DNA from: Actinomycetota bacterium
GTDB taxonomy: Bacteria; Actinomycetota; Thermoleophilia; Solirubrobacterales; 70-9
NCBI GenBank assembly: GCA_038040415.1
Contig: JBBPIK010000006.1
Span: 8,763-72,762, forward strand
DNA: 64,000 bases
Direction of reading: 5' to 3'
The notes beneath the pieces were generated by a model that saw nothing but the letters and a program-made list of their open reading frames with translations, was not told where the DNA came from and ran no database searches. Shown in pieces: positions 19-60,841 of this stretch. The translations under genes and the position numbers were made by a program. Position 1 is the first letter of the stretch; every line of letters starts with the position of its first letter.

Positions 19-417
19 CTACTGGGAGCCCGACCCCGTGCCCGGTTGCGGAGCCTCGCTGGCCTCGCGGCCCGCGTACTTGGAGACGAACTCGGCGACG
101 CTGATCGCTTCCTCGCCGGTGACGATGTTCTGGGGCATGATCGCGCCCGAGAAGCCGCCGTTGCGGATCGCGAACAGGACGTCGTCCACGCTCTCGGCGC
201 GCTCGTCGAGATTCGGGCCCTGTGCACGAAGCGCCCGGTTGGCGGTCCCCTGAGTCCCCGCCGGCGTCAGCGTGTGACAGCCTGAGCACCGCTCCGCGAA
301 CAGCACCGCTCCGCGATGGGCGGGGTCGTCCTGCGACACCGAGATCCCCTCGGTCCCGCACGCGGCCAGGACCAGGGCCGCCGCGGCTGCCACTGTGAAC
401 GCGAGGACGGGGCGCAC
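19..417 (-). CDS. c-type cytochrome (single CxxCH), probable lipoprotein
   Basis: This is the distal part of ORF 19..870(-). A GTG at 415-417 gives VRPVLAFTVAAAAALVLAACG, a signal peptide with a lipobox, followed by the CSGCH haem-binding motif and a distal Met (IMPQN). The upstream 150 codons of the tracked ORF overlap the opposite-strand flavin reductase gene and look like GC read-through. Confidence 0.7.
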   Translation of the reverse strand: MRPVLAFTVAAAAALVLAACGTEGISVSQDDPAHRGAVLFAERCSGCHTLTPAGTQGTANRALRAQGPNLDERAESVDDVLFAIRNGGFSGAIMPQNIVTGEEAISVAEFVSKYAGREASEAPQPGTGSGSQ

Positions 418-466
418 GCGGGCGGCATCATACTTTCCGCTTCGTGACCGCGAGCCTCGTGCCCTG

Positions 467-958
467 ATGCCAACCGAGATCGAGCCGGCCACCTTGCGCG
501 CCGCGATGTCGCGCTTCCCGACGGCGGTCACCGTGATCACCGCGATCGGCCCCGCGGCGGGGCCGGCGGGGGCGACCGCGAACGCCGTCGCCTCGCTGTC
601 GCTGGAGCCACCGCTGATGCTCGCCGCGCTCGACCTCGGCTCCCGCACCTTGGTCGCGGTCGAGCACGCCAGCCGCTTCGGCATCAACGTGCTGGCCTCC
701 GACCAGGCGGAGCTGGCCCGGCGCTTCAGCACCAAAGACCCGCACCCGGAGAAGTGGGACGGCGTCGCCTTCGAGGAGCGGGCCGGAACCCCCAGGATCG
801 AGGGAGCCCTCATCTGGCTCGCCTGCGAGCTGCGCGACGTCCACGACGGCGGCGACCACACGATCGCCACCGGCGCGGTGCTCGACCTCGAGCACTCCGA
901 GGGCGAGCCGTTGATCTTTCACCGCGGCGAGTACCGGCCGCTGACCGGCAGTAGTTGA
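467..958 (+). CDS. flavin reductase-like FMN-binding protein
   Basis: There is an in-frame ATG (MPTEIEP) inside ORF 395..958. FPTAVTVITA, GATANAVASLSLEPPLMLAAL, GDHTIATGAV and FHRGEY match the split-barrel flavin reductase (HpaC-like) pattern as I recall it. Confidence 0.7.
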   Translation: MPTEIEPATLRAAMSRFPTAVTVITAIGPAAGPAGATANAVASLSLEPPLMLAALDLGSRTLVAVEHASRFGINVLASDQAELARRFSTKDPHPEKWDGVAFEERAGTPRIEGALIWLACELRDVHDGGDHTIATGAVLDLEHSEGEPLIFHRGEYRPLTGSS

Positions 959-3222: not shown

Positions 3223-4484
3223 GCGACCTGGGCCGAGACGTCATCTCGCGCACGGACGCCCAGGTGATCGGCACCGCCCTGGTGGAACGCACCGCGGCCG
3301 GACAGGCGCTTGCGCCCGAGCAGGAGCTGATGACGATCAACATGGGGCCGCACCATCCGGCCACCCACGGGGTGCTGCGGCTGCTGGTCAGCCTCGAGGG
3401 GGAGGTGGTCCGCGACCTGAAGCCGGTGGTGGGCTACGTGCACACGGGGATCGAGAAGAGCTGCGAGGACAAGTCCTACTGGAAGGCGATCCCGTTCGTG
3501 GAGCGGATGGACTACCTCTCCTACTTCTTCAACATGGAGGCGTTCGTCGGCTGCGTGGAGCGCCTGCTCGAGCTGGAGATCCCCCCGCGCGCCAAGTACC
3601 TGCGAGTGATCCACCTGGAGCTGAACCGGATCCACTCGCACCTCGTCTGGCTCGGAACCGGGGCCCTCGACCTCGGCGCGATGTCGATGTTCTTCTACTG
3701 CTTCCGGGACCGCGACCGGATCCTCGACCTGTTCGAGCTGTCGACCGGGCAGCGGATGCACACCCGCTACTTCCAGGTCGGGGGCGTCTTCGAGGACATC
3801 CCCGTCGGCTTCGAGCGCCAGGCCCGCGCCTTCTGCGCCGAGATGCCCTCGCGGCTCGATCAGTACGAGGCGATCCTCAACCGCAACGAGATCTTCTTGC
3901 AACGGACGAGGAACGTCGGCGTCGTCCCGCGCCAGCGACTGCTGGACCTGGGGGTAACGGGGCCGCTGCTGCGGGCCGCCGGCGAGCCGTGGGACCTGCG
4001 CAAGGTTGATCCCACCCTCGCCTATGCGGACTTCGACTTTCAGATTCCGGTGGGCACCGTGGGCGACGGCCACGATCGCTACCGCGTGCGGGTGCAGGAG
4101 ATGCGCGAGTCGGTGCGGATCGTCGAGCAGGCCCTCGACGGGCTGCCCGAGGGCCCGTGGATCGCCGACGACCGCAAGGTGGTGCTGCCGCCGCGCGACG
4201 AGCTCTCGACCTCGATGGAGGCCTTGATCCACCACTTCAAGCTGGTCACCGAGGGCTTCCGGGTGCCGCCGGGCGAGGCCTACTACCCGGTCGAGGGACC
4301 GCGCGGAGAGCTCGGCTGCTTCGTGGTCGCCGATGGCTCGGCGAAGCCGGCCCGAGTCCACTTCCGCGACCCCTCGTTCGTCAACCTGCAGGCGCTTCGC
4401 GACATGTCCGTGGGCGGCTACGTCGCCGACCTGATCCAGAACCTGGCGATGCTCGACCCGATCCTGGGAGGCATCGACCGATGA
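3219..4484 (+). CDS. nuoD: NADH-quinone oxidoreductase subunit D
   Basis: The 421-aa product has MGPHHPATHGVLRL, YVHTGIEK and a C-terminal DPILGGIDR. The start overlaps nuoC as ATGA. Confidence 0.95.
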   Translation: MSDLGRDVISRTDAQVIGTALVERTAAGQALAPEQELMTINMGPHHPATHGVLRLLVSLEGEVVRDLKPVVGYVHTGIEKSCEDKSYWKAIPFVERMDYLSYFFNMEAFVGCVERLLELEIPPRAKYLRVIHLELNRIHSHLVWLGTGALDLGAMSMFFYCFRDRDRILDLFELSTGQRMHTRYFQVGGVFEDIPVGFERQARAFCAEMPSRLDQYEAILNRNEIFLQRTRNVGVVPRQRLLDLGVTGPLLRAAGEPWDLRKVDPTLAYADFDFQIPVGTVGDGHDRYRVRVQEMRESVRIVEQALDGLPEGPWIADDRKVVLPPRDELSTSMEALIHHFKLVTEGFRVPPGEAYYPVEGPRGELGCFVVADGSAKPARVHFRDPSFVNLQALRDMSVGGYVADLIQNLAMLDPILGGIDR

Positions 4485-6550
4485 TGGACGCCGGGGCTAG
4501 GGACGAAGTCCCGGTGCACGCGGCTGAACCTGCCGCCCCGTCCGCGCCCGAACCCGCCGGAAACGTAGCCGAAGGCGAGGCTTCCGGCGGAGTTATTCCC
4601 GAGTTGCACGAGGTCGACGTGCCCGACGAGCTGCGGGAGGAAATCGAGACGGCGATGTCCCGCTACCCCGAGATCCGCTCGGCCGCGCTTCCTGCGCTCT
4701 GGGCCGTTCAGCGCGAGTACGGATGGTGCACCCCGGACGGCGTCCGCCAGGCGGCGGCGGTGATGGGGGTGACCCCCGGCTACCTCGAGTCCCTCGCGAC
4801 CTTCTACGACCTCTTCCGGACGACTCCGGTGGGGCGCCACCAGGTGCTCGTCTGCCACAACATCTCCTGCTGGATGCGAGGGGCGGACGACCTGCTCCGC
4901 GCCTTCAGCGAGGCCGCCGGCGCCGATGCCCACGAGGCCGATCACGGAGGCGCCAGCTCGGCGGACGGGGAGGTCTTCGTAATGGGCTTCGAGTGCCTCG
5001 GGGCGTGCGACATCGCGCCGATGGCCTCGATCGACGAGCGCTACTACGGGCCCCTGGACGCCGGCGACGCGGAGACCGCGGTGGAGCAGCTTCGCTCTGG
5101 CGCCGAGGTCCTACCGGACAAGGCGCTCGCCGACCGCCCCGCAGCCGGCGGCCCCGAGCCCGAACCCGCCCCTGAAACGCGGATGCTCTTCAAGAGCCTC
5201 GACGAGCCGGGGCTGGCCTCGATCGACACCTACCGCCGCCTGGGCGGATACAGCTCGCTGGAGCGCGCCTTCCGCGACCTGGAGCCGGAGGAGCTGCTTG
5301 GCGTGCTGGAGGAGTCCGGGCTCCGCGGCCGCGGCGGGGCCGGCTTCTCGATGGGAAGGAAGGCCTCCTTTCTTCCCCGCGGCGAGATGTCCAAGTACCT
5401 GTGCTGCAACGCCGACGAGTCCGAGCCGGGCGCGTTCAAGGACCGCGAGCTGATGCAGAAGAACCCGCACCAGCTGATCGAGGGGATCGCGATCGCGGCG
5501 CTGGCCGCCGGGGCCGGCTGGGGATTCGTGTTCATCCGGGGCGAGTACGCGGCGGTGGCCGACATCCTCGACCGCGCGGTCGCCGAGGCGTACGAGGCGG
5601 GCTACCTGGGCGAGAACATCCTCGGCAGTGGTTCCCGCGTCGAGGTGGTCGTCCACCGCGGCGCCGGCGCCTATATCTGCGGCGAGGAGACGGCGCTCCT
5701 CGACGCGCTTGAGGGAAAGCGCGGCAACCCGCGCCTGAAGCCGCCGTTCCCGGCGATTCAGGGCCTCTACGGAGGGCCCACCCTGATCAACAACGTCGAG
5801 ACGCTGTCCAACGTGCCCCACATCGTCGCCAACGGCGCCGAGTGGTTCAAGGGGCTCGGCACCGAGCAGTCGCCCGGCACCAAGGTCGTCTCGGTGTCGG
5901 GCTGCGTCCAGCGGCCCGGCAACTACGAAGTCGCACTCGGGATCCCCACCCGGGAGCTGATCTACGGGCTAGCCGGCGGCCCGCCGCCCGGACGCGAGGT
6001 CAAGGCCTGGTTCCCGGGTGGTTCCTCGGCGCCGATCCTAACCGCGGCCGAGCTCGACCTCCCATACAGCTTCGAGGCAATGGCCGACGCGGGCTCGATG
6101 CTCGGCTCGGGGTCGATCATCGTCGCCGACGACTCGATCTCGATTCCGGAGCTGGCGCTGCGCACGGCGCGCTTCTACCACCACGAGTCATGCGGAAAGT
6201 GCACGCCGTGTCGCGAAGGCACCAACTGGACGGTGAAGATGCTCGAGCGGGTGATCTCGGGCGAGGCGACCCCGATGGACCTCGACATCATCGCCTCGGT
6301 GCAGGAGAACATCATCGGCCACTGCCTGTGCGTGCTCGGTGACTCGATGGCGATGCCGGTTTCGAGCATGGTGGCGAAGTTCCGGGAGGAATTCGAAGAA
6401 CACATCCGACGAGTCGCAAGCGACTCGCCGGGTTCGGGCGCCGACGGGGCGGCAGGTTTGCACGCCCAGGGAGCCGAAGGCGACCGGTCATCCGGCGAAG
6501 CCGGAGGCGGGACTTCGTCCCTAGCCCCAGCGAGCGGTCGGCATGCGTGA
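4481..6550 (+). CDS. nuoEF: fused NADH-quinone oxidoreductase subunits E and F (single ORF)
   Basis: The frame of ORF 4157..6550 is open throughout. The NuoE part carries ALPALWAVQREYGW, VCHNISCWMRG and FECLGACDIAPM. A linker (DRPAAGGPEPEPAPETR) follows. The NuoF part carries GLRGRGGAGFSMGRK, NADESEPGAFKDR, ICGEETALL, ESCGKCTPCREG and CVLGD. The ATG at 4481 overlaps the nuoD stop, and in-frame TTG 4604 or GTG 4619 are alternative starts lying just after PR1 copy 1. Confidence 0.85.
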   Translation: MMDAGARDEVPVHAAEPAAPSAPEPAGNVAEGEASGGVIPELHEVDVPDELREEIETAMSRYPEIRSAALPALWAVQREYGWCTPDGVRQAAAVMGVTPGYLESLATFYDLFRTTPVGRHQVLVCHNISCWMRGADDLLRAFSEAAGADAHEADHGGASSADGEVFVMGFECLGACDIAPMASIDERYYGPLDAGDAETAVEQLRSGAEVLPDKALADRPAAGGPEPEPAPETRMLFKSLDEPGLASIDTYRRLGGYSSLERAFRDLEPEELLGVLEESGLRGRGGAGFSMGRKASFLPRGEMSKYLCCNADESEPGAFKDRELMQKNPHQLIEGIAIAALAAGAGWGFVFIRGEYAAVADILDRAVAEAYEAGYLGENILGSGSRVEVVVHRGAGAYICGEETALLDALEGKRGNPRLKPPFPAIQGLYGGPTLINNVETLSNVPHIVANGAEWFKGLGTEQSPGTKVVSVSGCVQRPGNYEVALGIPTRELIYGLAGGPPPGREVKAWFPGGSSAPILTAAELDLPYSFEAMADAGSMLGSGSIIVADDSISIPELALRTARFYHHESCGKCTPCREGTNWTVKMLERVISGEATPMDLDIIASVQENIIGHCLCVLGDSMAMPVSSMVAKFREEFEEHIRRVASDSPGSGADGAAGLHAQGAEGDRSSGEAGGGTSSLAPASGRHA
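4493..4600 (+). repeat. PR1 palindromic repeat, copy 1 (scaffold only, no cassette)
   Basis: GGGGCTAGGGACGAAGTCCC...CCTGCCGCCCCGTCCGCGCCCGAACCCGCCG...GCCGAAGGCGAGGCTTCCGGCGGAGTTATTCCC aligns by eye with the copies at 6398, 11507, 31620 and 40615. Confidence 0.85.
6398..6528 (-). repeat. PR1 palindromic repeat, copy 2 (inverted, one cassette)
   Basis: The reverse complement reads GGGGCTAGGGACGAAGTCCCG-CCTCCGGCTTCGCCGGATGACCGGTCGCCTTCGGCTCCCTG-...CCTGCCGCCCCGTCGGCGCCCGAACCCGGCG-hairpin-TCGGATGTGTTC. The copy lies inside the 3' end of the nuoEF ORF. Confidence 0.85.
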
Positions 6551-10573: not shown

Positions 10574-10969
10574 GTGTCCACCGAGAACGTCCAAATCACC
10601 CGCAGACTGGTCGAGGCCTTCAACGATCGAGACATCGACTCGGTGGTCCAGGACATGCAGCCGGACGTCGAGCTGCATCCGCTGCGAGCCCAGCTCGAGG
10701 GAAAGGCCTACCGGGGACACGACGGGGTGCGCGAGATGCTGGCTGACTTCGACCAGGACTGGGAGTACGTTCAGGTCGACGCCGAGGAGTTCCGGGACGC
10801 GGACGACGAGGTCGTCGTGCTGGGCCGCCTCCGCGCCCGCGGGCGGGCCAGCGGCATCGACCTCGACGTGCCGATGGGGTTTGTCTGGACCCTCCGCGAC
10901 GGCAAGGTGGTGCGGATACAGTCATTCTCCGAGCAGGCGGACGCGCTGCGCGCCGCGGGCCTCGTGTAG
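10574..10969 (+). CDS. NTF2/SnoaL-like small protein (paralog family, copy 1)
   Basis: The 131-aa product starts VSTENVQITRRLVEAFNDRD and ends EQADALRAAGLV. It has the same architecture as the ORFs at 39903, 60000 and 60399. It is preceded by the 12-mer GCGAGATACTGG, which ends 7 nt before the start. Confidence 0.7.
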   Translation: MSTENVQITRRLVEAFNDRDIDSVVQDMQPDVELHPLRAQLEGKAYRGHDGVREMLADFDQDWEYVQVDAEEFRDADDEVVVLGRLRARGRASGIDLDVPMGFVWTLRDGKVVRIQSFSEQADALRAAGLV

Positions 10970-10993: not shown

Positions 10994-11692
10994 ATGGTGG
11001 AGGTCGCCTTCTTCGCCGGGGCGATCGGCGCCGTCGCCGGGGCGGTGGGCGTGATCGCGTTGCGGAACCCCTTCTACAGCGTGCTGGCGCTGGTCGTCCA
11101 CCTGGTGGCCCTGGCCGGGCTGTTCTTGTTGCTGTACGCGCAATTCGTCGCCGCCGCCCAGGTGGTCGTCTATGCGGGCGCGGTGATGGTCCTGTACGTC
11201 TTCGTGGCCGCCTACGTGGGCGAGGTCGAGGAGCCGATCTGGGAGCCGATCCCGGGCCAGCGATTCCTGGCCCCACTGCTGGCCGCGGCGCTCTTCGTCG
11301 AGCTCTCGATCGCGATCCTGGGCACCGGGCTGTCTTCCCTCGACAGCGAGGGGCCGACGTTGCCGATCGGCTTCGGATCTCCGGAGGCGATCGGCAACCT
11401 GCTGCTGGAGCGCTTCCTGGTCGTCTTCGAGGCCGCCTCGATGCTCCTCCTCGTCGCCGCAGTCGGGGCGGTCGTCCTGGCGGGACGAACCAGGGTGGCA
11501 CCCGCCGGGGCCAGGGACGAAGTCCCGCATCCGGTTTCGCCGGATGATCGGTCGCCTTCGGCTCCCTACGCGGCTGAGCCTGCCGCCCCGTCCGCGCCCG
11601 AACCCGCCGCATCCGAGCAAGCTCGGATGACCGGTCGCCCTTCGGGCTCCCTGGTAGGCGAAGGCGAGGCTTCCGGCGGAGGGGTTCCCTAA
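10994..11692 (+). CDS. nuoJ: NADH-quinone oxidoreductase subunit J with repeat-encoded C-terminal tail
   Basis: The NuoJ core runs about 165 aa ([60 protein letters not shown]). About 67 further codons then run through PR1 copy 3 to a TAA that overlaps the nuoK ATG. Confidence 0.85.
11507..11689 (+). repeat. PR1 palindromic repeat, copy 3 (scaffold plus two cassettes)
   Basis: The scaffold is the same as copy 1. A roughly 42-bp cassette is inserted twice: CATCCGGTTTCGCCGGATGATCGGTCGCCTTCGGCTCCCT at 11528-11567 and CATCCGAGCAAGCTCGGATGACCGGTCGCCCTTCGGGCTCCCTG at 11610-11653. Confidence 0.85.
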
Positions 11693-11991
11693 TGGACGTC
11701 ACCTGGTATCTGGTTCTCTCGGCGCTCCTTTTCGCGATCGGCGCCGCCGGCGTGCTGATCCGGCGCAGCCCGCTGGTGATCCTGCTCTGCCTCGAGTTGA
11801 TGCTGAACGCGGGCAACCTCGCCCTGGTCGCCTTCGCCCGCGACCGGGGCGACCAGGACGGCCAGGTGTTCGCCTTGATCGTCATGGTCGTCGCCGCCTG
11901 CGAGGTGGTGGTCGGGCTGGGCCTGATCGTGGCGATGTTCAGGCGCCGGCTGCCGCTGAACGTCGATGAGATGAGGGACCTCCGCGGGTGA
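11692..11991 (+). CDS. nuoK: NADH-quinone oxidoreductase subunit K
   Basis: The 99-aa product has three TM segments and [17 protein letters not shown]. The start overlaps nuoJ as TAATG. Confidence 0.9.
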
Positions 11992-30722: not shown

Positions 30723-31646
30723 CTACCAGTGGGCGTCGTGATGCTCCATGACGCCGAGGCCGCGCTCGAGCGCCAGCCCCCCCGGAAGGGTGCCCGAGAA
30801 GCTGCCGAAGGGCTGACGGTACGTGTAGCGGACGAGGAGGCGGTTCTCCTGCTTTCGCCGCTCGCACTCGCCACTGAACTCGAGCCGCGACCCGTCGTCG
30901 AAGGCGATCGCCTCCAGGCCCTCGAAGCTGACGGGGCCCGGCTCGAAGGGCTCGCCGTCCACCCAGATCGCCCGCTCGGAGCGCTGTGGCGGGTCGTTGA
31001 TGCCGCTGACCAGGTTCCAGCCGACCGAGCGCCCGTCGCCGGTGCGGCCGACGCCGGCGGACCAGCTCCACACCGTGTGGCGAGGGTGATAGCCGGCCGA
31101 CTCGTCCTCCATCCCGCGCGCCTCGACCCGCCAGCGGCGCTCGCCGATGCGGACGTCGCACTCCACCGGGACATCGGCCCGCTTTCGGGTCCACACGTAC
31201 TCGCCCTCCCCGTTGGGACACACCGCCTCCACCCACCCGCCGGCGCCCGCGCGGAGGAAGGCCCGCACCTCGCCCTCGCTCCGGCGCGCCTCGATCCGCA
31301 CCAGCGAACCTTCGTCGGGCGCATAGTTGACCAGGCCTCCCTCGCCGTCGCCCGTTTCCGTCCAGACCTCGCCTCGCGCGCCTGGGAGCCGCAGCCGGGT
31401 GCGCTCCCACATCTCGCCGCGCTCGCGGTCCCAGATCGCCCAGAACGTCTGCCCGAGCTTTCCGACCTGGACCCGCGCGGCGCAGAGGAGCAACTCGTCG
31501 GAATAGGCGCCCAGGTAACGCCAGCGCTTGCGCCACCGGCCGCCGCGCCGCAGAGGCATCGGATTGGGGGGCAACGGCAGGTCGGGGCGGCCCGGACCGG
31601 GTCCGCGCCACGGAAGGCCCGGGCTGGCGACGAAGTCGCGATTCAC
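30723..31646 (-). CDS. DUF2804-like protein
   Basis: The 307-aa product has RWRYLG near the N-terminus and a C-terminal GVMEHHDAHW, as I recall for DUF2804. The GTG at 31646 lies inside PR1 copy 5, and ATG 31559 (MPLRRGG) is an alternative start. Confidence 0.6.
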   Translation of the reverse strand: MNRDFVASPGLPWRGPGPGRPDLPLPPNPMPLRRGGRWRKRWRYLGAYSDELLLCAARVQVGKLGQTFWAIWDRERGEMWERTRLRLPGARGEVWTETGDGEGGLVNYAPDEGSLVRIEARRSEGEVRAFLRAGAGGWVEAVCPNGEGEYVWTRKRADVPVECDVRIGERRWRVEARGMEDESAGYHPRHTVWSWSAGVGRTGDGRSVGWNLVSGINDPPQRSERAIWVDGEPFEPGPVSFEGLEAIAFDDGSRLEFSGECERRKQENRLLVRYTYRQPFGSFSGTLPGGLALERGLGVMEHHDAHW

Positions 31647-31727
31647 GTGCTTACGGCCTGCCGCCCCGTAACGCGCCCTGACCCGCCGACACCGGACGTG
31701 AAACGGAGGATGTCGGCGGAGTTGTTC
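31620..31727 (+). repeat. PR1 palindromic repeat, copy 5 (divergent loop insert)
   Basis: CGGGCTGGCGACGAAGTCGCG...CCTGCCGCCCCGTAACGCGCCCTGACCCGCCG-acaccggacgtgaaacggaggatgt-CGGCGGAGTTGTTC fills essentially the whole spacer between the carboxylase stop (31730) and the DUF2804-like gene. Confidence 0.8.
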
Positions 31728-31729
31728 AT

Positions 31730-33511
31730 CTATGCGATCTTCGCGATCACGTCGCCCGCAGCGACCGAGGTGCCCTCCTTGACCCCGAGCTTGCTGACCT
31801 TGCCGGGGCGGTGCGCGGTGATCTCGTTCTCCATCTTCATCGCCTCCACCACGCAGATCAGGGTGCCGTCCTCGACCTGGTCCCCGTTCTTCACCGCCAC
31901 CTTCAGGACGGTGCCCTGGATCGGAGAGACAAGGGTCTCGGTGGCGCTGGCTCCGGCGGCTCCGGCGGCGGCGCGCTCGCGGCGCGGCGGGCGGCGCAAC
32001 CCGGCGGCGGCGCCCGGGTTCGTCGCCCCCGCGGCGGGGATCACCTTGACGCTGTGGAGGCGCCCGTCGATCTCGACCTGGTAAACGCGCTCGGTGGCTC
32101 CTTCGGGCTCAACGCCCGGATCAGGCCCGAGGCCGGCAGCCGGGGACGCCTCGGGCGACGGCGCCAGCGACTTCAACCACTTGCGGTCGCCGAGCAGGTC
32201 GCGGCAGGTCTCGGCGTCCCGCCACTGGTCGGTGGCGAGGATCGCCCTGTGAAACGGGACCAGGGTCACGAGCCCGCCGATCTCGTACTCGCCCAAGGCC
32301 CGCAGCATCCTGGCCGTTGCCCGTTCGCGATCGGTGTCCCAGACGATCAGCTTGGCGATCAGCGGGTCATAAAGCGGGGTCACCTCCGAGCCGGCGACGA
32401 CGCCCGAGTCCACCCGCACACCAGGCCCACCCGGCTCGCGATAGGTGGTGATCCTTCCCGGCGCCGGTGCGAAGTTCTTGTGTGCGGCCTCGGCGTTGAT
32501 CCGGCACTCGATCGCGTGCCCGCGAAGCTCCACGTCCTCCTGGCTCACCGAGAGCTCCTCGCCGGCCGCAATCAGGACCTGCTCACGAACGATGTCCATC
32601 CCGGTGACCATCTCGGTGACGCAGTGCTCCACCTGGACGCGGGTGTTCATCTCCAGGAAGAAGTACTCCTCGCCGGTCTGAAGGCCCTCGACGGTCCCCG
32701 CCGACCGGTACTCGACCGCCGTTGCGGCGTCAGTGGCGACCTTGCCGATTCGCTCTCGCATCCCGTCGTCCACGTGCGGCGCCGGGGACTCCTCGACCAG
32801 CTTCTGGTGGCGGCGCTGAAGCGAGCAGTCACGCTCGCCGAGGTGAACCACGTTGCCGTGCGAGTCGGCCAGCACCTGGACCTCGACGTGCCGGGGGTCC
32901 TCCAGGTAGCGCTCCAGGTAGACGGTGGGGTCGGAGAAGAACTTCTCGCCCTCGCGCGCGGCCCCCTCGAACGCGTCCTCGAGCTCCTTCTCGGAGTTGG
33001 CGACCCGAAAGCCCTTCCCGCCTCCCCCGCCGGCGGCCTTGCAGGCCACCGGGTAGCCGATCTCCTTGGCCTCGCGCTTGGCGTCGGCGACGCTCTCGAC
33101 CGGCGAGGTTGTCCCGGGGACAATCGGCACGCCTGCCTCCGCCATCAACTCGCGGGCGCGGGTCTTCGATCCCATCGCCTCGATTGCGCTCGCCGGCGGC
33201 CCGATGAACGTCACACCGGCCTCCTCGCAGGCCGCAGCAAACTCGGCGTTCTCGGCCAGGAACCCGTAGCCGGGATGGACCGCTTCCGCCCCGGCCTTCT
33301 CGGCCGTCTCCAGCAGCCTGGCGATGCTCAGGTAGCTCTCGGCCGGCACCGGCGGCCCCAGCAGGTGGGCCTCATCCGCCTCGCCCACGTGGGGCGCGTC
33401 CCGGTCGGCCTCCGAGTAGACGCCAACCGAAGCGATCCCCATTTCCCTCAGAGTCCGCATGACGCGGATCGCGATCTCGCCCCGGTTGGCAACCAGGACC
33501 TTCTCGAACAT
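31730..33511 (-). CDS. acetyl/propionyl-CoA carboxylase alpha subunit (biotin carboxylase plus BCCP)
   Basis: The product starts MFEKVLVANRGEIAIRV, has an ATP-grasp core, and ends with the biotinyl motif EAMKMEN. Confidence 0.9.
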   Translation of the reverse strand: MFEKVLVANRGEIAIRVMRTLREMGIASVGVYSEADRDAPHVGEADEAHLLGPPVPAESYLSIARLLETAEKAGAEAVHPGYGFLAENAEFAAACEEAGVTFIGPPASAIEAMGSKTRARELMAEAGVPIVPGTTSPVESVADAKREAKEIGYPVACKAAGGGGGKGFRVANSEKELEDAFEGAAREGEKFFSDPTVYLERYLEDPRHVEVQVLADSHGNVVHLGERDCSLQRRHQKLVEESPAPHVDDGMRERIGKVATDAATAVEYRSAGTVEGLQTGEEYFFLEMNTRVQVEHCVTEMVTGMDIVREQVLIAAGEELSVSQEDVELRGHAIECRINAEAAHKNFAPAPGRITTYREPGGPGVRVDSGVVAGSEVTPLYDPLIAKLIVWDTDRERATARMLRALGEYEIGGLVTLVPFHRAILATDQWRDAETCRDLLGDRKWLKSLAPSPEASPAAGLGPDPGVEPEGATERVYQVEIDGRLHSVKVIPAAGATNPGAAAGLRRPPRRERAAAGAAGASATETLVSPIQGTVLKVAVKNGDQVEDGTLICVVEAMKMENEITAHRPGKVSKLGVKEGTSVAAGDVIAKIA

Positions 33512-39101: not shown

Positions 39102-39770
39102 CTAGGAGTCTTCGCGCTCGGGGTCCTGCTCGCCGGCCTGCGCGGGCTCCTCCTCCGCGGCGTCGGCGGCGGGCTCAGCTTCCTCTGCGGCGGGCGCTGC
39201 CTCCTCGCCAGACGGGGCGACCGGGGCTTCCTCCGCTGCCGGCTGGGCGGCGGCCGGGGCTTCCTCCGCTGCCGGCTGGGGGCTGGCCGGGGCTTCCTCC
39301 GCTGCGGGCTGGGGGGCCTCAGTGGGCTCCTCCCCTGGAGTGGGCTCGTCCCCTGGCGTCGATTCCGCGGCTGCGGGAGCCTCCTCCCGCCCCGCGGCGC
39401 CCTGGGGGCGGCGCCCGCCCCGAGCCGGGGGTGCGCCGACGGCGCTCTGCGGCGCCGACGGGACGATCGCCGGCGAGCGTGGGTCGACCTTGAAGATCCG
39501 GAAGCGCAGGACGCCGTCGGCAATCCGCAGGTTGTGGTTCAGATCGTCGAGCAGCCCTCCATCCGTTTCGAAGCGGAAGAAGCGATAGTCGGCCTCGGTG
39601 CGCTGCTCGATCTCATAGGCGAGCTTGCGCGTACCCCAGGACGTGTCCTGCTTGAGGGAGCCGCCTGACTCGATCCGCGTCCGCGCTTCGGCCGCGATCT
39701 GCTCCCGGCGTTCATCCGTGATGTCGGGATCGAGCATCAGGACGAGCTCGTATTCGCGGGAGGGACTCAA
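39102..39770 (-). CDS. rpsF: 30S ribosomal protein S6 with long acidic repeat-containing C-terminal extension
   Basis: The start codon is TTG. The S6 core runs about 100 aa (EYELVLMLDPD...WGTRKLAYEI...YRFFRFE). It is followed by about 120 aa of Ala/Pro/Glu-rich sequence that includes three copies of PQPAAEEAPA-type units. Confidence 0.85.
   Translation of the reverse strand: MSPSREYELVLMLDPDITDERREQIAAEARTRIESGGSLKQDTSWGTRKLAYEIEQRTEADYRFFRFETDGGLLDDLNHNLRIADGVLRFRIFKVDPRSPAIVPSAPQSAVGAPPARGGRRPQGAAGREEAPAAAESTPGDEPTPGEEPTEAPQPAAEEAPASPQPAAEEAPAAAQPAAEEAPVAPSGEEAAPAAEEAEPAADAAEEEPAQAGEQDPEREDS
39221..39319. repeat. 3 x 33-bp tandem repeat inside the rpsF tail
   Basis: The unit CCGGGGCTTCCTCCGCTGCCGGCTGGG-NNNNNN occurs at 39221, 39254 and 39287. 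An adjacent 2 x 18-bp repeat (AGTGGGCTCSTCCCCTGG) lies at 39321-39356. Confidence 0.85.
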
Positions 39771-40370: not shown

Positions 40371-40940
40371 ATGGGCAGCGGATCCCGCATTCGCTGGCGC
40401 AAGGTCGCCAAGCTCGCTCTCGGCGTGCTCGGCTGCCTGGCCTTGGTCGTGGGCCTGCCGAGCCTCATTCGGCGCCCCGAGCCGCCGCCGCTGGAGCCGG
40501 ACATCGGGCTGGCACACCTAGCGACGTCCCGGGAACCCGCGCATTCGACCCAGCGACCGGCGCCCGGCCCCGATCGCCGTGACGCCAAGACCCAAGGCAG
40601 GCCAGGCGGTCGGGCCTGCCGCCCCGCCAGCGCCCTAACCCGCCGCATCCGGCTCCGCCGGATGACCGGTCGCCTCCGGCTCCCTGGTAGCCGGAGGCGA
40701 GGCTTTCGGCGGAGTTGTTCAGGGACCCGATCCCAAGGCCGGCGGCGCCATGCCGGCGCCGGCCGTCCGACCCGTCGCGAACGGGGTCAACCCTCGACCG
40801 GCTCGACCGTCACCGACGTCTCGGCTCAGGTCCCCGTCCCCCCTGCCGGCGCGGCGCCTCCGCCGCCAACTGCCCCGCTGCGAGCCCAAGCGCAGGCGCC
40901 GCAGCCGGCCGTCGCGTCGGAGTTCGGATTCGAGCGCTGA
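40371..40940 (+). CDS. questionable ORF (N-terminal TM anchor; body runs through PR1 copy 4)
   Basis: The 189-aa product has only one convincing feature, the N-terminal hydrophobic segment (KLALGVLGCLALVVGLPSL). The rest is Arg/Pro-rich and partly encoded by the repeat. Confidence 0.3.
   Translation: MGSGSRIRWRKVAKLALGVLGCLALVVGLPSLIRRPEPPPLEPDIGLAHLATSREPAHSTQRPAPGPDRRDAKTQGRPGGRACRPASALTRRIRLRRMTGRLRLPGSRRRGFRRSCSGTRSQGRRRHAGAGRPTRRERGQPSTGSTVTDVSAQVPVPPAGAAPPPPTAPLRAQAQAPQPAVASEFGFER
40615..40720 (+). repeat. PR1 palindromic repeat, copy 4 (5' hairpin missing, one cassette)
   Basis: CCTGCCGCCCCGCCAGCGCCCTAACCCGCCG-CATCCGGCTCCGCCGGATGACCGGTCGCCTCCGGCTCCCTG-GTAGCCGGAGGCGAGGCTTTCGGCGGAGTTGTTC. 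Confidence 0.75.
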
Positions 40941-57393: not shown

Positions 57394-57963
57394 ATGAGTG
57401 ACCTTCAAGCGGCGCGCGCCACGCTCTTGGCCGAGCTTCGCGAGCACGCTCTGGTGTTCGGCGAGGTGACCCTGTCGAGCGGCCAGCGCGCCTCCTACTA
57501 CGTCGACGCCCGCCGCGCGATCCTGCGCCCGGCAGGCTTTCGCGCCGTGGGCGAGCTGCTCGCCGGCGCGGCGCGGGAGCTCGGCGCCGCCGCCGTCGGG
57601 GGGCCGGTGATGGCGGCGATCCCGCTTGCCTGCGCAGCGATAGGCGTGCCCGGCGGCGAGGGACTGGTCGGATTCTTCGTCCGCAGCGATCGCAAGCAGC
57701 ACGGCCTCCAGCGCTGGATCGAGGGACCGGTGGAAGCCGGAGCGCGCTGCCTGGTGGTCGAGGACACGGTGACCACCGGGCGCTCAACGGTGTCGGCGAT
57801 CGAGCGGATGCGCGCTGAGGGCCTCGAGGTGGCGGGGGCCGTCTGCGTGGTCGATCGCCTCGCCGGCGGTGGCGAGGCGATCGCCGATGCGGCCGGCGCG
57901 CCGTTCAAGGCGCTGGTCACGATCGACGAGCTCTATCCCGACCGACCCGACCGGGACCTTTAG
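57394..57963 (+). CDS. pyrE: orotate phosphoribosyltransferase
   Basis: The ATG at 57394 begins the ORF. FGEVTLSSGQRASYYVD and the PRPP-binding loop CLVVEDTVTTGRS are present. Confidence 0.9.
   Translation: MSDLQAARATLLAELREHALVFGEVTLSSGQRASYYVDARRAILRPAGFRAVGELLAGAARELGAAAVGGPVMAAIPLACAAIGVPGGEGLVGFFVRSDRKQHGLQRWIEGPVEAGARCLVVEDTVTTGRSTVSAIERMRAEGLEVAGAVCVVDRLAGGGEAIADAAGAPFKALVTIDELYPDRPDRDL
57889..57963 (+). repeat. direct repeat A (authentic pyrE 3' end)
   Basis: GCGGCCGGCGCGCCGTTCAAGGCGCTGGTCACGATCGACGAGCTCTATCCCGACCGACCCGACCGGGACCTTTAG is repeated at 58557-58629. Confidence 0.9.
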
Positions 57964-57994
57964 CCCACCCCAATCGGCTTCTGCTCACCTGCCG

Positions 57995-58035
57995 GTTGGC
58001 GCGTTTCAGACCCATGCGGTCTGAAAAGCGCCAAC
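57995..58035. terminator. TH2 hairpin copy d
   Basis: GTTGGCGCGTTTCAGACC-catgc-GGTCTGAAAAGCGCCAAC begins 32 nt after the pyrE stop. It is preceded by CCCCAATCGGC, the reverse complement of the tail seen beside copy c. Confidence 0.45.
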
Positions 58036-58150
58036 TGTGCCAGCCAAGCGCAGCATTCCAATCTCGTATCCGACCGACGCGTCCGCCTGCGCAAGAATGT
58101 GAGGAATGGCGCACCGTGGAGATCGCGTCCGAATGGGCCAAATCGGAGCG

Positions 58151-58462
58151 ATGACCTTTCTCCGTGCGGCAAGCGCAGGGGTACTGGCTGGGTTGATCGC
58201 CGTGTTGGCAGTCGGGTGGGTGATCAGTCTCTTCGTCGGCGGTGGCAGCGGCAGCGATGCGGTTGACGCGGCCTTTTATGCGAGCGTGATGACTACGGCG
58301 AGCGCTGTTGCTTTCGGTGTCTCCCGTCGAAGCGGTGCGCCGCCCAGCATGGCCTGGCTCGCGAGCGCCCTGGCGGCCGGCACGATGCTGGCGCTCGGTG
58401 TCGCGTTCTACATCATCTACTTCGAGTTCCTTTTGGGAGACGACGCCTTCCGACGCTTTTGA
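58151..58462 (+). CDS. hypothetical small membrane protein
   Basis: An ATG at 58151 lies within ORF 58106..58462. The product has three hydrophobic segments. It lies between the two pyrE 3'-end repeats. Confidence 0.4.
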   Translation: MTFLRAASAGVLAGLIAVLAVGWVISLFVGGGSGSDAVDAAFYASVMTTASAVAFGVSRRSGAPPSMAWLASALAAGTMLALGVAFYIIYFEFLLGDDAFRRF

Positions 58463-58556
58463 GTACTCAGTCTCCGTCTAAAAGGTCACTGGGGTGGATC
58501 CCGGGGGCGCGGGCGCTGGCTCCTGCTGGGTCTATCGGGCAGCGGTCCTAGCCGAG

Positions 58557-58629
58557 GCGGCCGGCGCCGTTCAAGGCGCTGGTCACGATCGACGAGCTCT
58601 ATCCCGACCGTCCCGACCGGGACCGGTAA
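58557..58629 (+). repeat. direct repeat B (orphan pyrE 3'-end fragment)
   Basis: About 69 of 73 aligned positions match repeat A by eye. There is a 2-nt deletion (GC), and the stop is TAA instead of TAG. No upstream pyrE body is present. Confidence 0.9.
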
Positions 58630-59284: not shown

Positions 59285-59591
59285 TGGCGATCTGACTCCA
59301 GTATCTCGCGTCATGGCGGTGCCGATACGGAACACGTCAATTCAGGGGGAAGCGCCGCCACTCGGGGAAAGCGACGCTCCCAGCGAGGGAACATCCCGAA
59401 ACGAAGACCGTCCCCTCACGTCTTGAAAGCTCGGAACCCGCCCCGCCTGGAGTCATCGGCGTGCCTCAGGCCAGTCAGACGATTGACCGAGTACCCCGAC
59501 CTTCCGCCTCCCAATCGGCGTGTACTTGAAACCGCTTACAGGAGATGTGCGCCGGATGGCGGGCAAGGTCGACGTTCTCTTGTGACGTCGC

Positions 59592-59996
59592 CTATTCCCG
59601 GCGCCCGGCGGCTTCGAGAGCTTCGGCGTGGCTTCCGTAGACCTCACCTCGCACCACGAGACCATCCTCGACCGTGTAGACGAACGCCGCTCGCAACTCG
59701 ACCACGACTCGCTGCCCCGCATGCGCCCTCGCTGGACCGTCGTCACAACGACTTGCGTATCACCCGCGTCGATGAAGCTCTCAAGCTCGTTGGTCCAGGC
59801 CTCATAGGCATCGGTCCACTCGGCGAAGAACTGCATGAAGCCCTCGCGGCCGTGAAACACCGGTTGCCCGGACCATGCGGACCACGACTCCATATCCCAG
59901 ACGAGGTCGGGCGAGACCAGTTCCGACAGCTCCTGGGTCTCGGCGAACTCGCTCAGGACGCGACGCACGATCTCCCTCCACGTTCTCCTGCGACAT
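59592..59996 (-). pseudogene. frameshifted NTF2/SnoaL-like paralog (copy 5)
   Basis: The reading frame is split over three frames. MSQENVEG is in ORF 59802..59996. RRVLSEFAETQ...VVTTVQRGRMRGSES is in ORF 59453..59968. ELRAAFVYTVEDGLVVRGEVYGSHAEALEAAGRRE-stop was read by hand from 59592-59699. Confidence 0.6.
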
Positions 59997-59999
59997 GGC

Positions 60000-60395
60000 C
60001 TACTCCTTGAGTCCGGCGGCTTCGAGGGCGTCGTCGGCGTTCGGGAAGGCTTCCAGCGAAAGGATTGTCCCGTCGCGAATCATCCACAGGTGCCCGTTTC
60101 GGGTCTCGAACTCGACGTCGGAGCCCTTCGGCCGCATGCGGTTCTTGACGATGACCACGACCTGATTCCCGCTTTCCAGGACCTCCGACGGCTCCATGAT
60201 CCAGGCATCAAACGCTGCGCGGACGTCGCGAAAAACCGCTTGCGGCGTTTCGCGTCCCCGATGCGTCCCGGCGAGGGGTCCACGCTTGAACGTGATCTCG
60301 ATGTCTGGGTGAGCGTCACGAAACGCGGCGTCCCAGTCGTTCCGGTTGAGCGCGTCGTACACGCGCCGGATGATCTCCACGTTCTCCTCCGACAT
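60000..60395 (-). CDS. NTF2/SnoaL-like small protein (paralog family, copy 4)
   Basis: The product starts MSEENVEIIRRVYDALNRND and ends ADDALEAAGLKE. It lies 3 nt downstream of copy 3. Confidence 0.7.
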   Translation of the reverse strand: MSEENVEIIRRVYDALNRNDWDAAFRDAHPDIEITFKRGPLAGTHRGRETPQAVFRDVRAAFDAWIMEPSEVLESGNQVVVIVKNRMRPKGSDVEFETRNGHLWMIRDGTILSLEAFPNADDALEAAGLKE

Positions 60396-60398
60396 CGC

Positions 60399-60791
60399 TT
60401 ACTCCGACAGCCCGGCGGCTTCGAGGGCTTCCGCTTCCTGATCGAGCATGAACATCTCTCCGCGCGCGATGAAACCCTCATCGTCAAGCGTCCAGACCGC
60501 CCAGGAGCCGGTGTCCAGCTCGATTCCGCTTCCCGCCCCACGAGCGAACATCCTTTGCCGCACGAGCACTTTGTCGCCGTTCACCCGAAACTCGAGCGGC
60601 TCGATCCTCTGTTCCGCGAACGCGTCAGGCTCCATCCACGCTCGTATCGCCTCCCGACCCTTAGGTGGCGATTCAATACCCGGACGGATGAATTCAACGT
60701 CCGGTCGAGAAAGCGCCATCGCCGTGTCGAAATCGCCGCGGTTGAACGCCTCGTAGCCGCGGCGCATGATCTCCACGTTCTCCTGCGACAT
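60399..60791 (-). CDS. NTF2/SnoaL-like small protein (paralog family, copy 3)
   Basis: The product starts MSQENVEIMRRGYEAFNRGD and ends EAEALEAAGLSE. GCGAGATACTG lies upstream, with the same 7-nt spacing counted from the 12th motif position. Confidence 0.7.
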   Translation of the reverse strand: MSQENVEIMRRGYEAFNRGDFDTAMALSRPDVEFIRPGIESPPKGREAIRAWMEPDAFAEQRIEPLEFRVNGDKVLVRQRMFARGAGSGIELDTGSWAVWTLDDEGFIARGEMFMLDQEAEALEAAGLSE

Positions 60792-60841
60792 CGCCCGTGC
60801 AGTATCTCGCCGGTGGCGTTCTCGCGCAGCAGGTATGGACG

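Follow-up and report, generated by a model that had tools for sequence, protein, structure and literature searches.

How does the gene for a membrane subunit of complex I come to end in a repeat element, and does the absence of stop codons from that element mean that selection keeps it translatable? The question is raised by nuoJ in a 64,000-nucleotide stretch of DNA (below, the window) from contig JBBPIK010000006.1 of a Solirubrobacterales bacterium (Actinomycetota). Here, the nuoJ open reading frame (ORF) runs through a whole copy of a hairpin-rich repeat, PR1, as a 67-aa tail and stops at a TAA codon that shares a base with the nuoK ATG, as a first-pass annotation made from the sequence alone had read it. 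The same annotation took the open frame as a sign of selection for coding compatibility. The explanation that we favor, with a probability of about 75%, is that PR1 is a non-autonomous, hairpin-rich selfish repeat resembling the Rickettsia palindromic elements (RPEs) and that nuoJ tolerates it in-frame.

The NuoJ tail and the nuoJ-nuoK junction

The NuoJ product matched Pfam family PF00499 (Oxidored_q3, NADH dehydrogenase chain 6; NuoJ/ND6) with 113.6 bits (cut-off 33.2), residues 16-162 covering the entire profile (positions 1-146 of 146). When NuoJ is aligned to 54 homologues, columns stay conserved up to A163/R165, after which conservation drops sharply, which bears out the earlier placement of the end of NuoJ homology near codon 165. 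The AlphaFold2 model contains five helices, the last of which ends at residue 166, and continues from residue 167 on as a coil with a predicted local distance difference test score (pLDDT) of 48-58. Since PF00499 ends at residue 162, the 67-residue C-terminal tail is not part of the conserved domain. If the ORF is read through, PR1 copy 3 supplies NuoJ residues ~170-232; the sequence of the whole tail, APAG...GGGVP, agrees with the first-pass annotation. From the positive-inside rule and the conserved Arg after the last helix, we suspect that this tail faces the cytoplasm. Coordinates of the features are collected in Table 1.

Table 1. Features of the nuoJ-nuoK junction and PR1 copies in the window
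Feature	Position	Strand	Description
nuoJ ORF	10994..11692	+	232 codons plus stop; from the ORF list and Pfam PF00499; homologues 67-90% identical
Conserved NuoJ core, codons 1-165	10994..11488	+	Ends ...VVLAGR; five predicted helices; from alignment columns and AlphaFold2 model
PR1 copy 3	11501..11689	+	nuoJ/nuoK junction; nhmmer match 11501-11693, boundaries from conservation profile
Module A of copy 3	11503..11527	+	5-bp hairpin GGGAC-GAA-GTCCC and 5' lead; repeat family D15
B cassette 1 of copy 3	11528..11567	+	Hairpin CATCCGG..CCGGATG and GGTCGCCTTCGGCTCCC; net +36 nt relative to copy 1
Linker and invariant C-rich box of copy 3	11568..11609	+	Box CCTGCCGCCCCGNNNGCGCCCNAACCC; repeat family D7
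B cassette 2 of copy 3	11610..11653	+	Variant stem CATCCGAGC..GCTCGGATG; net +39 nt relative to copy 1
Module D, 3' part, of copy 3	11654..11689	+	Inner GCGAAGGC hairpin, 3' arm GCTTCCGGC, terminal GGAGGGGTTCCC; repeat family D6
GGAGG at 3' end of copy 3	11678..11682	+	Shine-Dalgarno-like, 9 nt ahead of nuoK ATG; read from sequence
TAATG	11690..11694	+	nuoJ stop TAA (11690-11692) shares its A with nuoK ATG at 11692
nuoK	11692..11991	+	99 codons; from the ORF list; 491 related stretches in metagenome contigs
PR1 copy 1 (A+C+D)	4487..4604	+	Just after NuoE start codon overlapping nuoD stop; open, in phase with NuoE
PR1 copy 2 (A+B+C and simple-hairpin D variant)	6389..6534	-	nuoF/nuoG junction
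PR1 copy 5 (diverged A+C+D)	31616..31730	+	Intergenic; stops in F0 phase
PR1 copy 4 (C+B+D, without module A)	40601..40720	+	Intergenic, in a stretch without convincing coding ORF; TAA in F0 phase

The composition of the tail sets it apart from the genes on either side. The codon log-odds score is -0.48 per codon in the tail versus +1.01 in the nuoJ body and +0.97 in nuoK, and the G+C content at third codon positions (GC3) is 0.67 versus 0.94-0.96 in native genes (0.94 in the nuoJ body). Differences among PR1 copies show no preference for third codon positions and instead take the form of compensatory changes in stems; in the phase used by nuoJ (F0 below), entropy at codon positions 1-3 is 0.45, 0.73 and 0.59, with the peak at position 2. 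Covariation in the stems alters the encoded residues, giving ARDEVP, ASDEVA or ARGEAP. Given the low log-odds and GC3 values, the lack of excess variation at third positions and the residue changes caused by stem covariation, the NuoJ tail is not native coding sequence. The GGAGG close to the end of copy 3 probably serves as the nuoK ribosome-binding site; in other PR1 copies GGAG stands 8-10 nt ahead of downstream starts, e.g., those of an ATP synthase delta-like gene (L068) and of an L16-like gene, MLMPKRVKHRKVQRG (L016).

Comparison of nuoJ-nuoK junctions across relatives, which the first-pass annotation had proposed, revealed empty, forward, reverse and remnant states. Among the best 120 NuoJ homologues, ~82 carry short native tails without PR1 (e.g., RSRERPD..EPAA), ~22 have tails or remnants of forward PR1, read in the phase seen in the window (PAGARDEVP...GGVP), and ~16 carry reverse-read PR1 tails (..SSASRPGSAGSG..AAG..TATSSLAP..). 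At the DNA level, the junction is empty in L080 and L081, where a TAG is directly followed by the nuoK GTG or ATG; L082 and L021 hold forward copies, L083 and L084 hold reverse copies that begin right after the LAGR codons, and L085 holds a deletion remnant. Empty junctions have a GAGGA-type motif of their own before nuoK. The closest NuoJ cores, P0017 (95.5% identical) and P0007, have native tails of 9-15 aa without PR1, and so do the closest NuoK loci, L086 (98%) and L087 (97%), with a native tail of 9 aa. Measured against NuoJ and NuoK divergence among these relatives, the window's insertion is a recent one.

A neighbor-joining tree of 118 NuoJ cores, which is short and noisy and whose tail classes were assigned by regular expression, requires at least 22 changes of state. 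When 80 loci retrieved by a NuoK scan of metagenomes were inspected, the best relatives almost never had a full PR1 at the junction, only remnants (L088, L091), the expression for the end of NuoJ having failed on ~35 of the 80. Since presence, absence, inversion and remnants are all found among relatives, we conclude that the nuoJ-nuoK junction is a hot spot of rapid PR1 gain, loss and inversion. NuoJ tails of variable length, from 5 to ~90 aa, are common in the clade.

A different element follows the nuoJ stop codon TAG in L086 (704-900, 197 nt) and, as a 44-nt remnant, in L087 (851-894). It has inverted ends, TAGTGGTRC...GGTACCACTAG, with CTAG/TAG on both sides, and resembles a MITE (miniature inverted-repeat transposable element) of the type with terminal inverted repeats.

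The PR1 family

The canonical PR1 unit begins with a lead of approximately CCCGCCGGGG, followed by CTAG and hairpin A and by a linker of ~14 nt. Its middle is the box CCTGCCGCCCCG NNN GCGCCC NAACCC, and its 3' part is the compound hairpin D (outer stem of 10 bp, inner stem of 3 bp), followed by GGAGTKRTTC. This core is ~110 nt long and may contain optional nested B cassettes of 40-44 nt. A core model detected five copies in the window with nhmmer, one of which (copy 5) had been missed by the first-pass annotation. Module patterns matched the window 3-4 times with no more than 0.3 matches expected from shuffles; for the module A pattern, the figures were 3 versus 0.01, and for the C-rich box 4 versus 0.02. 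The earlier start of copy 3 at 11507 did not hold, as conservation across copies places the element from ~11501/03 to 11687/89. Copy 3 is the largest in the window and consists of a core like that of copy 1 with two B cassettes, the extra blocks adding 36 and 39 columns to the alignment, each number divisible by three. Another metagenome-assembled genome (MAG), L025, has at an unrelated locus a C+B'+D composite nearly identical to that of copy 3. Copy 3 is a single composite unit; tandem arrangement was seen for 3' half-units only, in some other loci.

The stems of PR1 are maintained by compensatory changes. The stem of module A alternates between GGGAC/GTCCC and GCGAC/GTCGC, and both the outer and the inner stem of module D covary. 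Across 49 distinct copies, the three PR1 helices pair in 93.9% of cells (80% in shuffles), double-sided changes occur in 11 of 18 pairs (105 cells versus 37.5), and the covariation score of 0.312 exceeds those of shuffles (0.092) and of slid controls (0.069 or less). Hairpin loops are of the form C-GNA-G in 49/49 (hairpin A) and 47/49 copies. This loop is a classic extra-stable DNA mini-hairpin and as such may point to a single-stranded DNA intermediate. Copy 3 folded as single-stranded DNA gave -58.5 kcal/mol (z = -3.05). The C-rich box is the most conserved part of PR1 and encodes a constant PAAPxAP(E/K)P. A possible G-quadruplex opposite the C-rich box, on the complementary strand, was noted from the sequence.

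The B cassette, a variable hairpin with ACCGGTCGCCTTCGGCTCCC, is also found without a PR1 core nearby (L010:4312; L016:2702, minus strand; L045:7525, minus strand; L036; L058). Within PR1, two defined sites accept cassettes, in either orientation. Because it occurs outside PR1 and in both orientations within it, the B cassette is a separate, nested hairpin unit that behaves like repetitive extragenic palindromes (REPs).

Searches for known classes of elements were negative. Rfam 15 gave no matches at gathering score in the whole window and none at E up to 1 in 11450-11720, so PR1 is not a described RNA family. No intrinsic terminator (hairpin and T-run) was found in 11501-11689, and a promoter scan of the element was also empty. 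The consensus ends, CCCGCCGGGGCTAG... and ...CGGCGGAGTTATTC, are not complementary, so that PR1 lacks the terminal inverted repeats of a MITE. Integron attC sites were rejected by eye, since the ends misfit the RYYYAAC/GTTRRRY cores and the copies are dispersed in core operons. No target-site duplication was seen at copies 1-5 or on comparison of filled and empty nuoJ-nuoK sites, where native tails differ and breakpoints are therefore inexact.

An exact-pattern scan of genome contigs for the C-rich box retrieved 79 loci, nearly all from Solirubrobacterales and other actinobacterial MAGs, and nhmmer found 136 PR1 matches in 80 sources (the window and the 79 loci). PR1 belongs to an extensive family of repeats in MAGs of Solirubrobacterales that has not been described before; a full-text literature search returned no description of such repeats in Solirubrobacterales. 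When the 39-aa F0 peptide of copy 1 was compared with 1.84 billion cluster representatives, 8 matches were obtained; as short queries and clustering at 50% hide insertions, the scale of the family is not measurable by peptide search.

Many of these copies lie inside genes. Copy 1 in nuoE shares its reading phase with copy 3, ARDEVP appearing in both as the first-pass annotation had pointed out, and at this nuoD/nuoE site relatives hold PR1 in either orientation, always in phase, so that the NuoE N-terminus is read from opposite PR1 strands in different MAGs. Copy 2 is read on the plus strand in the reverse phase R1, which yields a C-terminal NuoF tail of ~45 aa, and has orthologues in reverse orientation in L006, L023, L037, L042 and L079. 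The flanking genes overlap at both sites (ATGA at nuoD/nuoE, ATG...TGA at nuoF/nuoG). L082 has a further copy between nuoH and nuoI (385-491, minus strand), and across genomes at least five nuo sites carry PR1: D/E, F/G, H/I, J/K and within G. Besides the NuoF tail, hosts that read PR1 include NuoG (internally), a UvrD-like protein, triosephosphate isomerase and the E2 acyltransferase, with PR1 in both of its lipoyl-domain linkers. In an Lhr-type helicase (L024:1641-1757, minus strand), PR1 forms a clean in-frame insertion of 39 aa between LERLD and QRIGLSAT. The corresponding residues, 183-221, have no counterpart in the structure of Mycobacterium smegmatis Lhr (5V9X), the insertion falling at its residue 217 and the flanks aligning to its residues 28-216 and 218-315. 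The tails of ribosomal protein S5 (rpsE-rpmD junction; L001, L016, L020, L036, L061) consist of tandem 15-nt units GCYGAAGGTGGAKCG (AEGGx) followed by a PR1 that ends just ahead of the L30 start codon. Outside genes, the 3' end of copy 5 abuts the stop codon of a minus-strand biotin carboxylase-like gene (31730..33511).

Reading phases and the origin of the open frame

The open frame at nuoJ is not in itself unusual. In dinucleotide shuffles of the 183-nt sequence (73% GC), the specified frame was open in 45% of cases and at least one forward frame in 89%; across the window, 50% of pairs of a 183-nt segment and a frame are open. The nuoJ frame is indeed the only stop-free forward frame of the 183 nt, as the first-pass annotation stated; the frame with the TGA at 11545 that it listed holds a second stop, TGA 11575, and two of the three reverse frames are stop-free as well. 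Since the frame is open no more often than expected by chance, the argument for selection from this single locus is weak.

We then consider the family as a whole. Of 93 copies, 62 are stop-free in F0, 59 in F1, 14 in F2, 81 in R0 (antisense), 58 in R1 and 28 in R2. The phase read in nuoJ is therefore not always open, and its open fraction of 67% is near the 55% found in shuffles; had selection acted on the element's own frame, the first-pass annotation reasoned, stops should have been rarer than base composition predicts, and the observed rate comes close to that prediction. Several intergenic copies have a TAA in F0 at the NAACCC position.

The picture differs when only copies read by host genes are counted. 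Host ORFs were recognized by scoring 240 nt of flanking sequence, up to 30 nt short of the element, with a codon model and were taken to read a copy if they extended at least 50 nt into PR1; this ORF tracking from coding flanks replaced an earlier classification by the immediate flank (240 nt), which left 31 copies unclassified. Host ORFs read 39/93 copies (~42%): 21 in F0, 14 in R1, 2 each in F1 and F2, and none in R0 or R2. Reduced to independent host sites, the counts are 13, 4, 2, 2, 0 and 0, with a neutral expectation of ~4 sites each for F0, F1, R0, R1 and R2. A chi-square test over the six phases gave p ~1e-5, an approximate value because expected counts are small, and F0 and R1 together outnumber F1 and R0 by 17 to 2 independent sites (binomial p = 3e-4). 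Yet F1 and R0 are open as often or more often. F0 and R1 peptides are acidic and rich in Ala, Pro, Gly and Ser; peptides of the other phases contain 13-18 Arg or Lys per 60 residues. Most ORFs that enter in F2 run out at the conserved CTAG of module A or shortly ahead of it, and those that enter in R2 do so at the 3' boundary of the element. The claim of selection for coding compatibility is thus not supported by the single locus, where the frame is open by chance in 45-50% of cases, and finds support in the phase bias of the family: the data support the existence of a filter for tolerable translation at the family level, which the nuoJ locus alone does not show. Concatenated consensus peptides searched against a set of 5.8 billion proteins gave 2 word-sharing candidates for F1 and R0 and 69 for F0 and R1, none with E of 0.001 or below; the difference runs the same way as the phase bias, but the test is too insensitive to be of use. 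With respect to the flanking genes, PR1 shows no strict orientation (++ 21, -- 17).

A selfish repeat tolerated in-frame would account for the locus as follows. A composite PR1 copy would have inserted just ahead of the coupled stop codon, in a short 3'-terminal part of nuoJ that is not conserved. As F0 lacks a stop and the length of the composite, with its cassettes of 36 and 39 nt, keeps the stop/start overlap in register, ribosomes would continue for ~62 codons and still terminate at TAATG. NuoJ would gain a 67-residue acidic, disordered tail, tolerated rather than needed and presumably neutral, and nuoK would keep its coupled start, with the GGAGG of the element acting as the ribosome-binding site. 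Insertions exposing an Arg-rich or stop-containing phase in essential operons would be removed by selection. The open frame would then be due to the rarity of stops at high GC and to selection against bad-phase insertions.

Several points weigh against this explanation. Neither a transposase nor terminal inverted repeats nor a target-site duplication came to light, no dedicated search for REP-associated tyrosine transposases (RAYTs) having been made, which leaves presence/absence and orientation polymorphism as the whole case for mobility; the mechanism of PR1 movement is something that we infer rather than observe. Three of the five window copies lie within one operon, which a purely selfish model does not predict and which could hint at a local function. 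The sample of PR1 loci was ascertained by exact match to the C-rich box and comes from MAGs, some of which are probably long-read assemblies in which indels could shift phases. The independence of host sites was judged by clustering of 30-aa flanks and manual merging, the S5 tails being merged. Finally, translation of the NuoJ tail is presumed from the ORF.

One may ask whether the element itself has been shaped by life in ORFs, with one benign open phase per strand (F0 and R1), the other phases closed by stops near its ends and a Shine-Dalgarno-like GGAG at the exit; the open nuoJ frame would then belong to the design of the element as well as reflecting which insertions the hosts survived. 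The phase bias at independent sites, the termination of F2 and R2 entrants near the ends of the element, the GGAG 8-10 nt ahead of several downstream starts and the translation of both orientations at nuoD/E and nuoJ/K in different lineages would all fit such an adaptation. However, the small excess of open F0 frames and the TAA in several intergenic copies do not, variation tracks stems and not codons, and the phase bias, observed on a small sample of 21 independent sites, is equally well explained by purifying selection of hosts after random insertion. We therefore regard adaptation of the element as possible but doubtful. With similar reserve, one could imagine PR1 as an undescribed class of hairpin mobile DNA, translation-proof on both strands, of free-living high-GC soil actinobacteria. 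It is an equally tentative extension that such DNA colonizes complex I, S5, 2-oxoacid dehydrogenase E2, Lhr and DnaE2-like enzymes and is a recurrent source of disordered tails and linkers.

PR1 could also be a functional nucleic-acid element of operon junctions, stabilizing upstream mRNA in the manner of REPs or bacterial interspersed mosaic elements (BIMEs) or modulating translational coupling, with translation of the copy being incidental. The three covarying helices and strong folding are what one would expect of such an element, as are the enrichment at the nuoD/E, nuoF/G, nuoH/I (L082), nuoJ/K and rpsE/rpmD junctions and the fact that the C-rich box is its most conserved part. We nevertheless consider this improbable: both orientations occur at the same junction (and ++ 21 vs -- 17 overall), there is no Rfam match at E = 1 and no terminator-like T-run, the closest relatives lack PR1 at this junction, many copies are inside domains or linkers of single genes, and C-GNA-G loops would point to DNA rather than RNA hairpins.

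Much less credible is a protein-level reading, in which selection has kept the 67-aa tail for some function in complex I as a true C-terminal extension of NuoJ and the copies elsewhere reflect a low-complexity module that the proteins share. Variable-length NuoJ tails are common in the clade and the F0 peptide resembles the Ala/Pro-rich linkers of E2, but the same DNA is untranslated or reversed elsewhere, compensatory stem changes alter the residues, codon usage is non-native, and the tail is missing in the closest relatives and predicted to be disordered. An assembly or sequencing artefact, with a true nuoJ stop further upstream or a misassembled element, can practically be dismissed: repeats and hairpins are error-prone and indel-like phase shifts are seen in L061, L025, L035 and L075, but independent metagenome assemblies show the same in-phase tails (P0001, P0004 and P0012 comprise 88, 23 and 24 member sequences), the DNA of L021 and L082 agrees, and both cassettes are exact multiples of three.

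Known repeats and other features of the window

The closest parallel to a selfish repeat tolerated in-frame is provided by the RPEs, which the passage on them in PMC10969869, citing Ogata et al. 2000, describes as interspersed palindromic repeats of ~100-150 bp, many of them in-frame in unrelated and often essential genes. PR1 is likewise interspersed, palindromic and read as extra peptide segments in-frame in unrelated genes. Unlike the RPEs, it belongs to free-living soil Solirubrobacterales with 73% GC, is built of modules with cassettes nested inside, has both strands translated (F0 forward, R1 reverse) and has a peptide that is not conserved beyond the C-rich box. Compared by description, and judging from host and base composition, PR1 and RPEs are unlikely to be homologous. 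In-frame fusion of small repeats is known more generally; as the relevant parts of PMC10969869 and PMC3184786 have it, ERIC, BOX and other repeats sometimes extend the 3' ends of genes.

Mycobacterial interspersed repetitive units (MIRUs) occur in polycistronic operons, and their ORF ends overlap the stop and start codons of neighbors (Supply et al. 1997, as excerpted in PMC3184786). PR1 is also actinobacterial and found at operon junctions, with a TAATG overlap at nuoJ/nuoK. Compared by description, MIRUs are units of 40-100 bp, often in tandem, whereas PR1 is composite, occurs in single genes and is found in either orientation. With the RAYT-associated REPs and BIMEs of enterobacteria and pseudomonads, PR1 shares GC-rich imperfect palindromes, a mosaic of hairpins with short motifs and a frequent location at operon junctions, the B cassette being like a solo REP; REPs, however, are extragenic by definition, whereas ~42% of the sampled PR1 copies are read by ORFs, and PR1 contains a C-rich box that is long, invariant and single-stranded. 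The BOX elements of Streptococcus pneumoniae have a similar A-B(n)-C style of modules, variable cassette number, stable folds and occasional fusion to ORFs; they differ in sequence and host and are mostly intergenic, whereas the cassettes of PR1 have two defined insertion sites and occur in both orientations.

If the picture of the family holds, PR1 in these uncultured Solirubrobacterales would be a second, independent and much larger system, after the RPEs, for studying selfish palindromic DNA within protein genes. It offers a free-living host, translation in both orientations and a junction at which close relatives variously have the element, lack it, carry it inverted or keep decayed pieces of it. 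Phase filtering, the seeding of disordered tails and linkers and the cost of hairpins within ORFs could be tested with existing metagenomes and metaproteomes. For annotation, the warning is that a long N- or C-terminal extension or an unusual linker in a protein of this clade may derive from a repeat.

Elsewhere in the nuo operon, NuoE and NuoF are encoded by one uninterrupted ORF of 689 codons (4481-6550, plus strand), with Pfam domains 2Fe-2S_thioredx at 55-203, Complex1_51K at 276-446 and NADH_4Fe-4S at 557-640 and no stop in between, an apparent NuoE-NuoF fusion. A 131-aa SnoaL_2-like gene (10574-10969, plus strand) is located between nuoI and nuoJ; it is also present there in L080, L082 and L084 and not in L081, L083 and L085.

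Other repeats were observed outside the operon. A tandem repeat with a 33-nt period, GGGGCTTCCTCCGCTGCCGGCTGGGCGGCGGCC, occupies positions 39133-39337 in or near the minus-strand ORF 39102..39770, whose product begins like ribosomal protein S6 (LSPSREYELVLMLDPD) and may have a repeat-derived tail. Regions 57898-58624 and 59568-60794 contain near-identical (98%) direct repeats of 61 nt lying 666 nt apart, and a series of repeats spaced by ~400 nt that all end in ...CTCCACGTTCTCCTGCGACAT (families D3, D8 and D10). This series suggests small genes duplicated in tandem.

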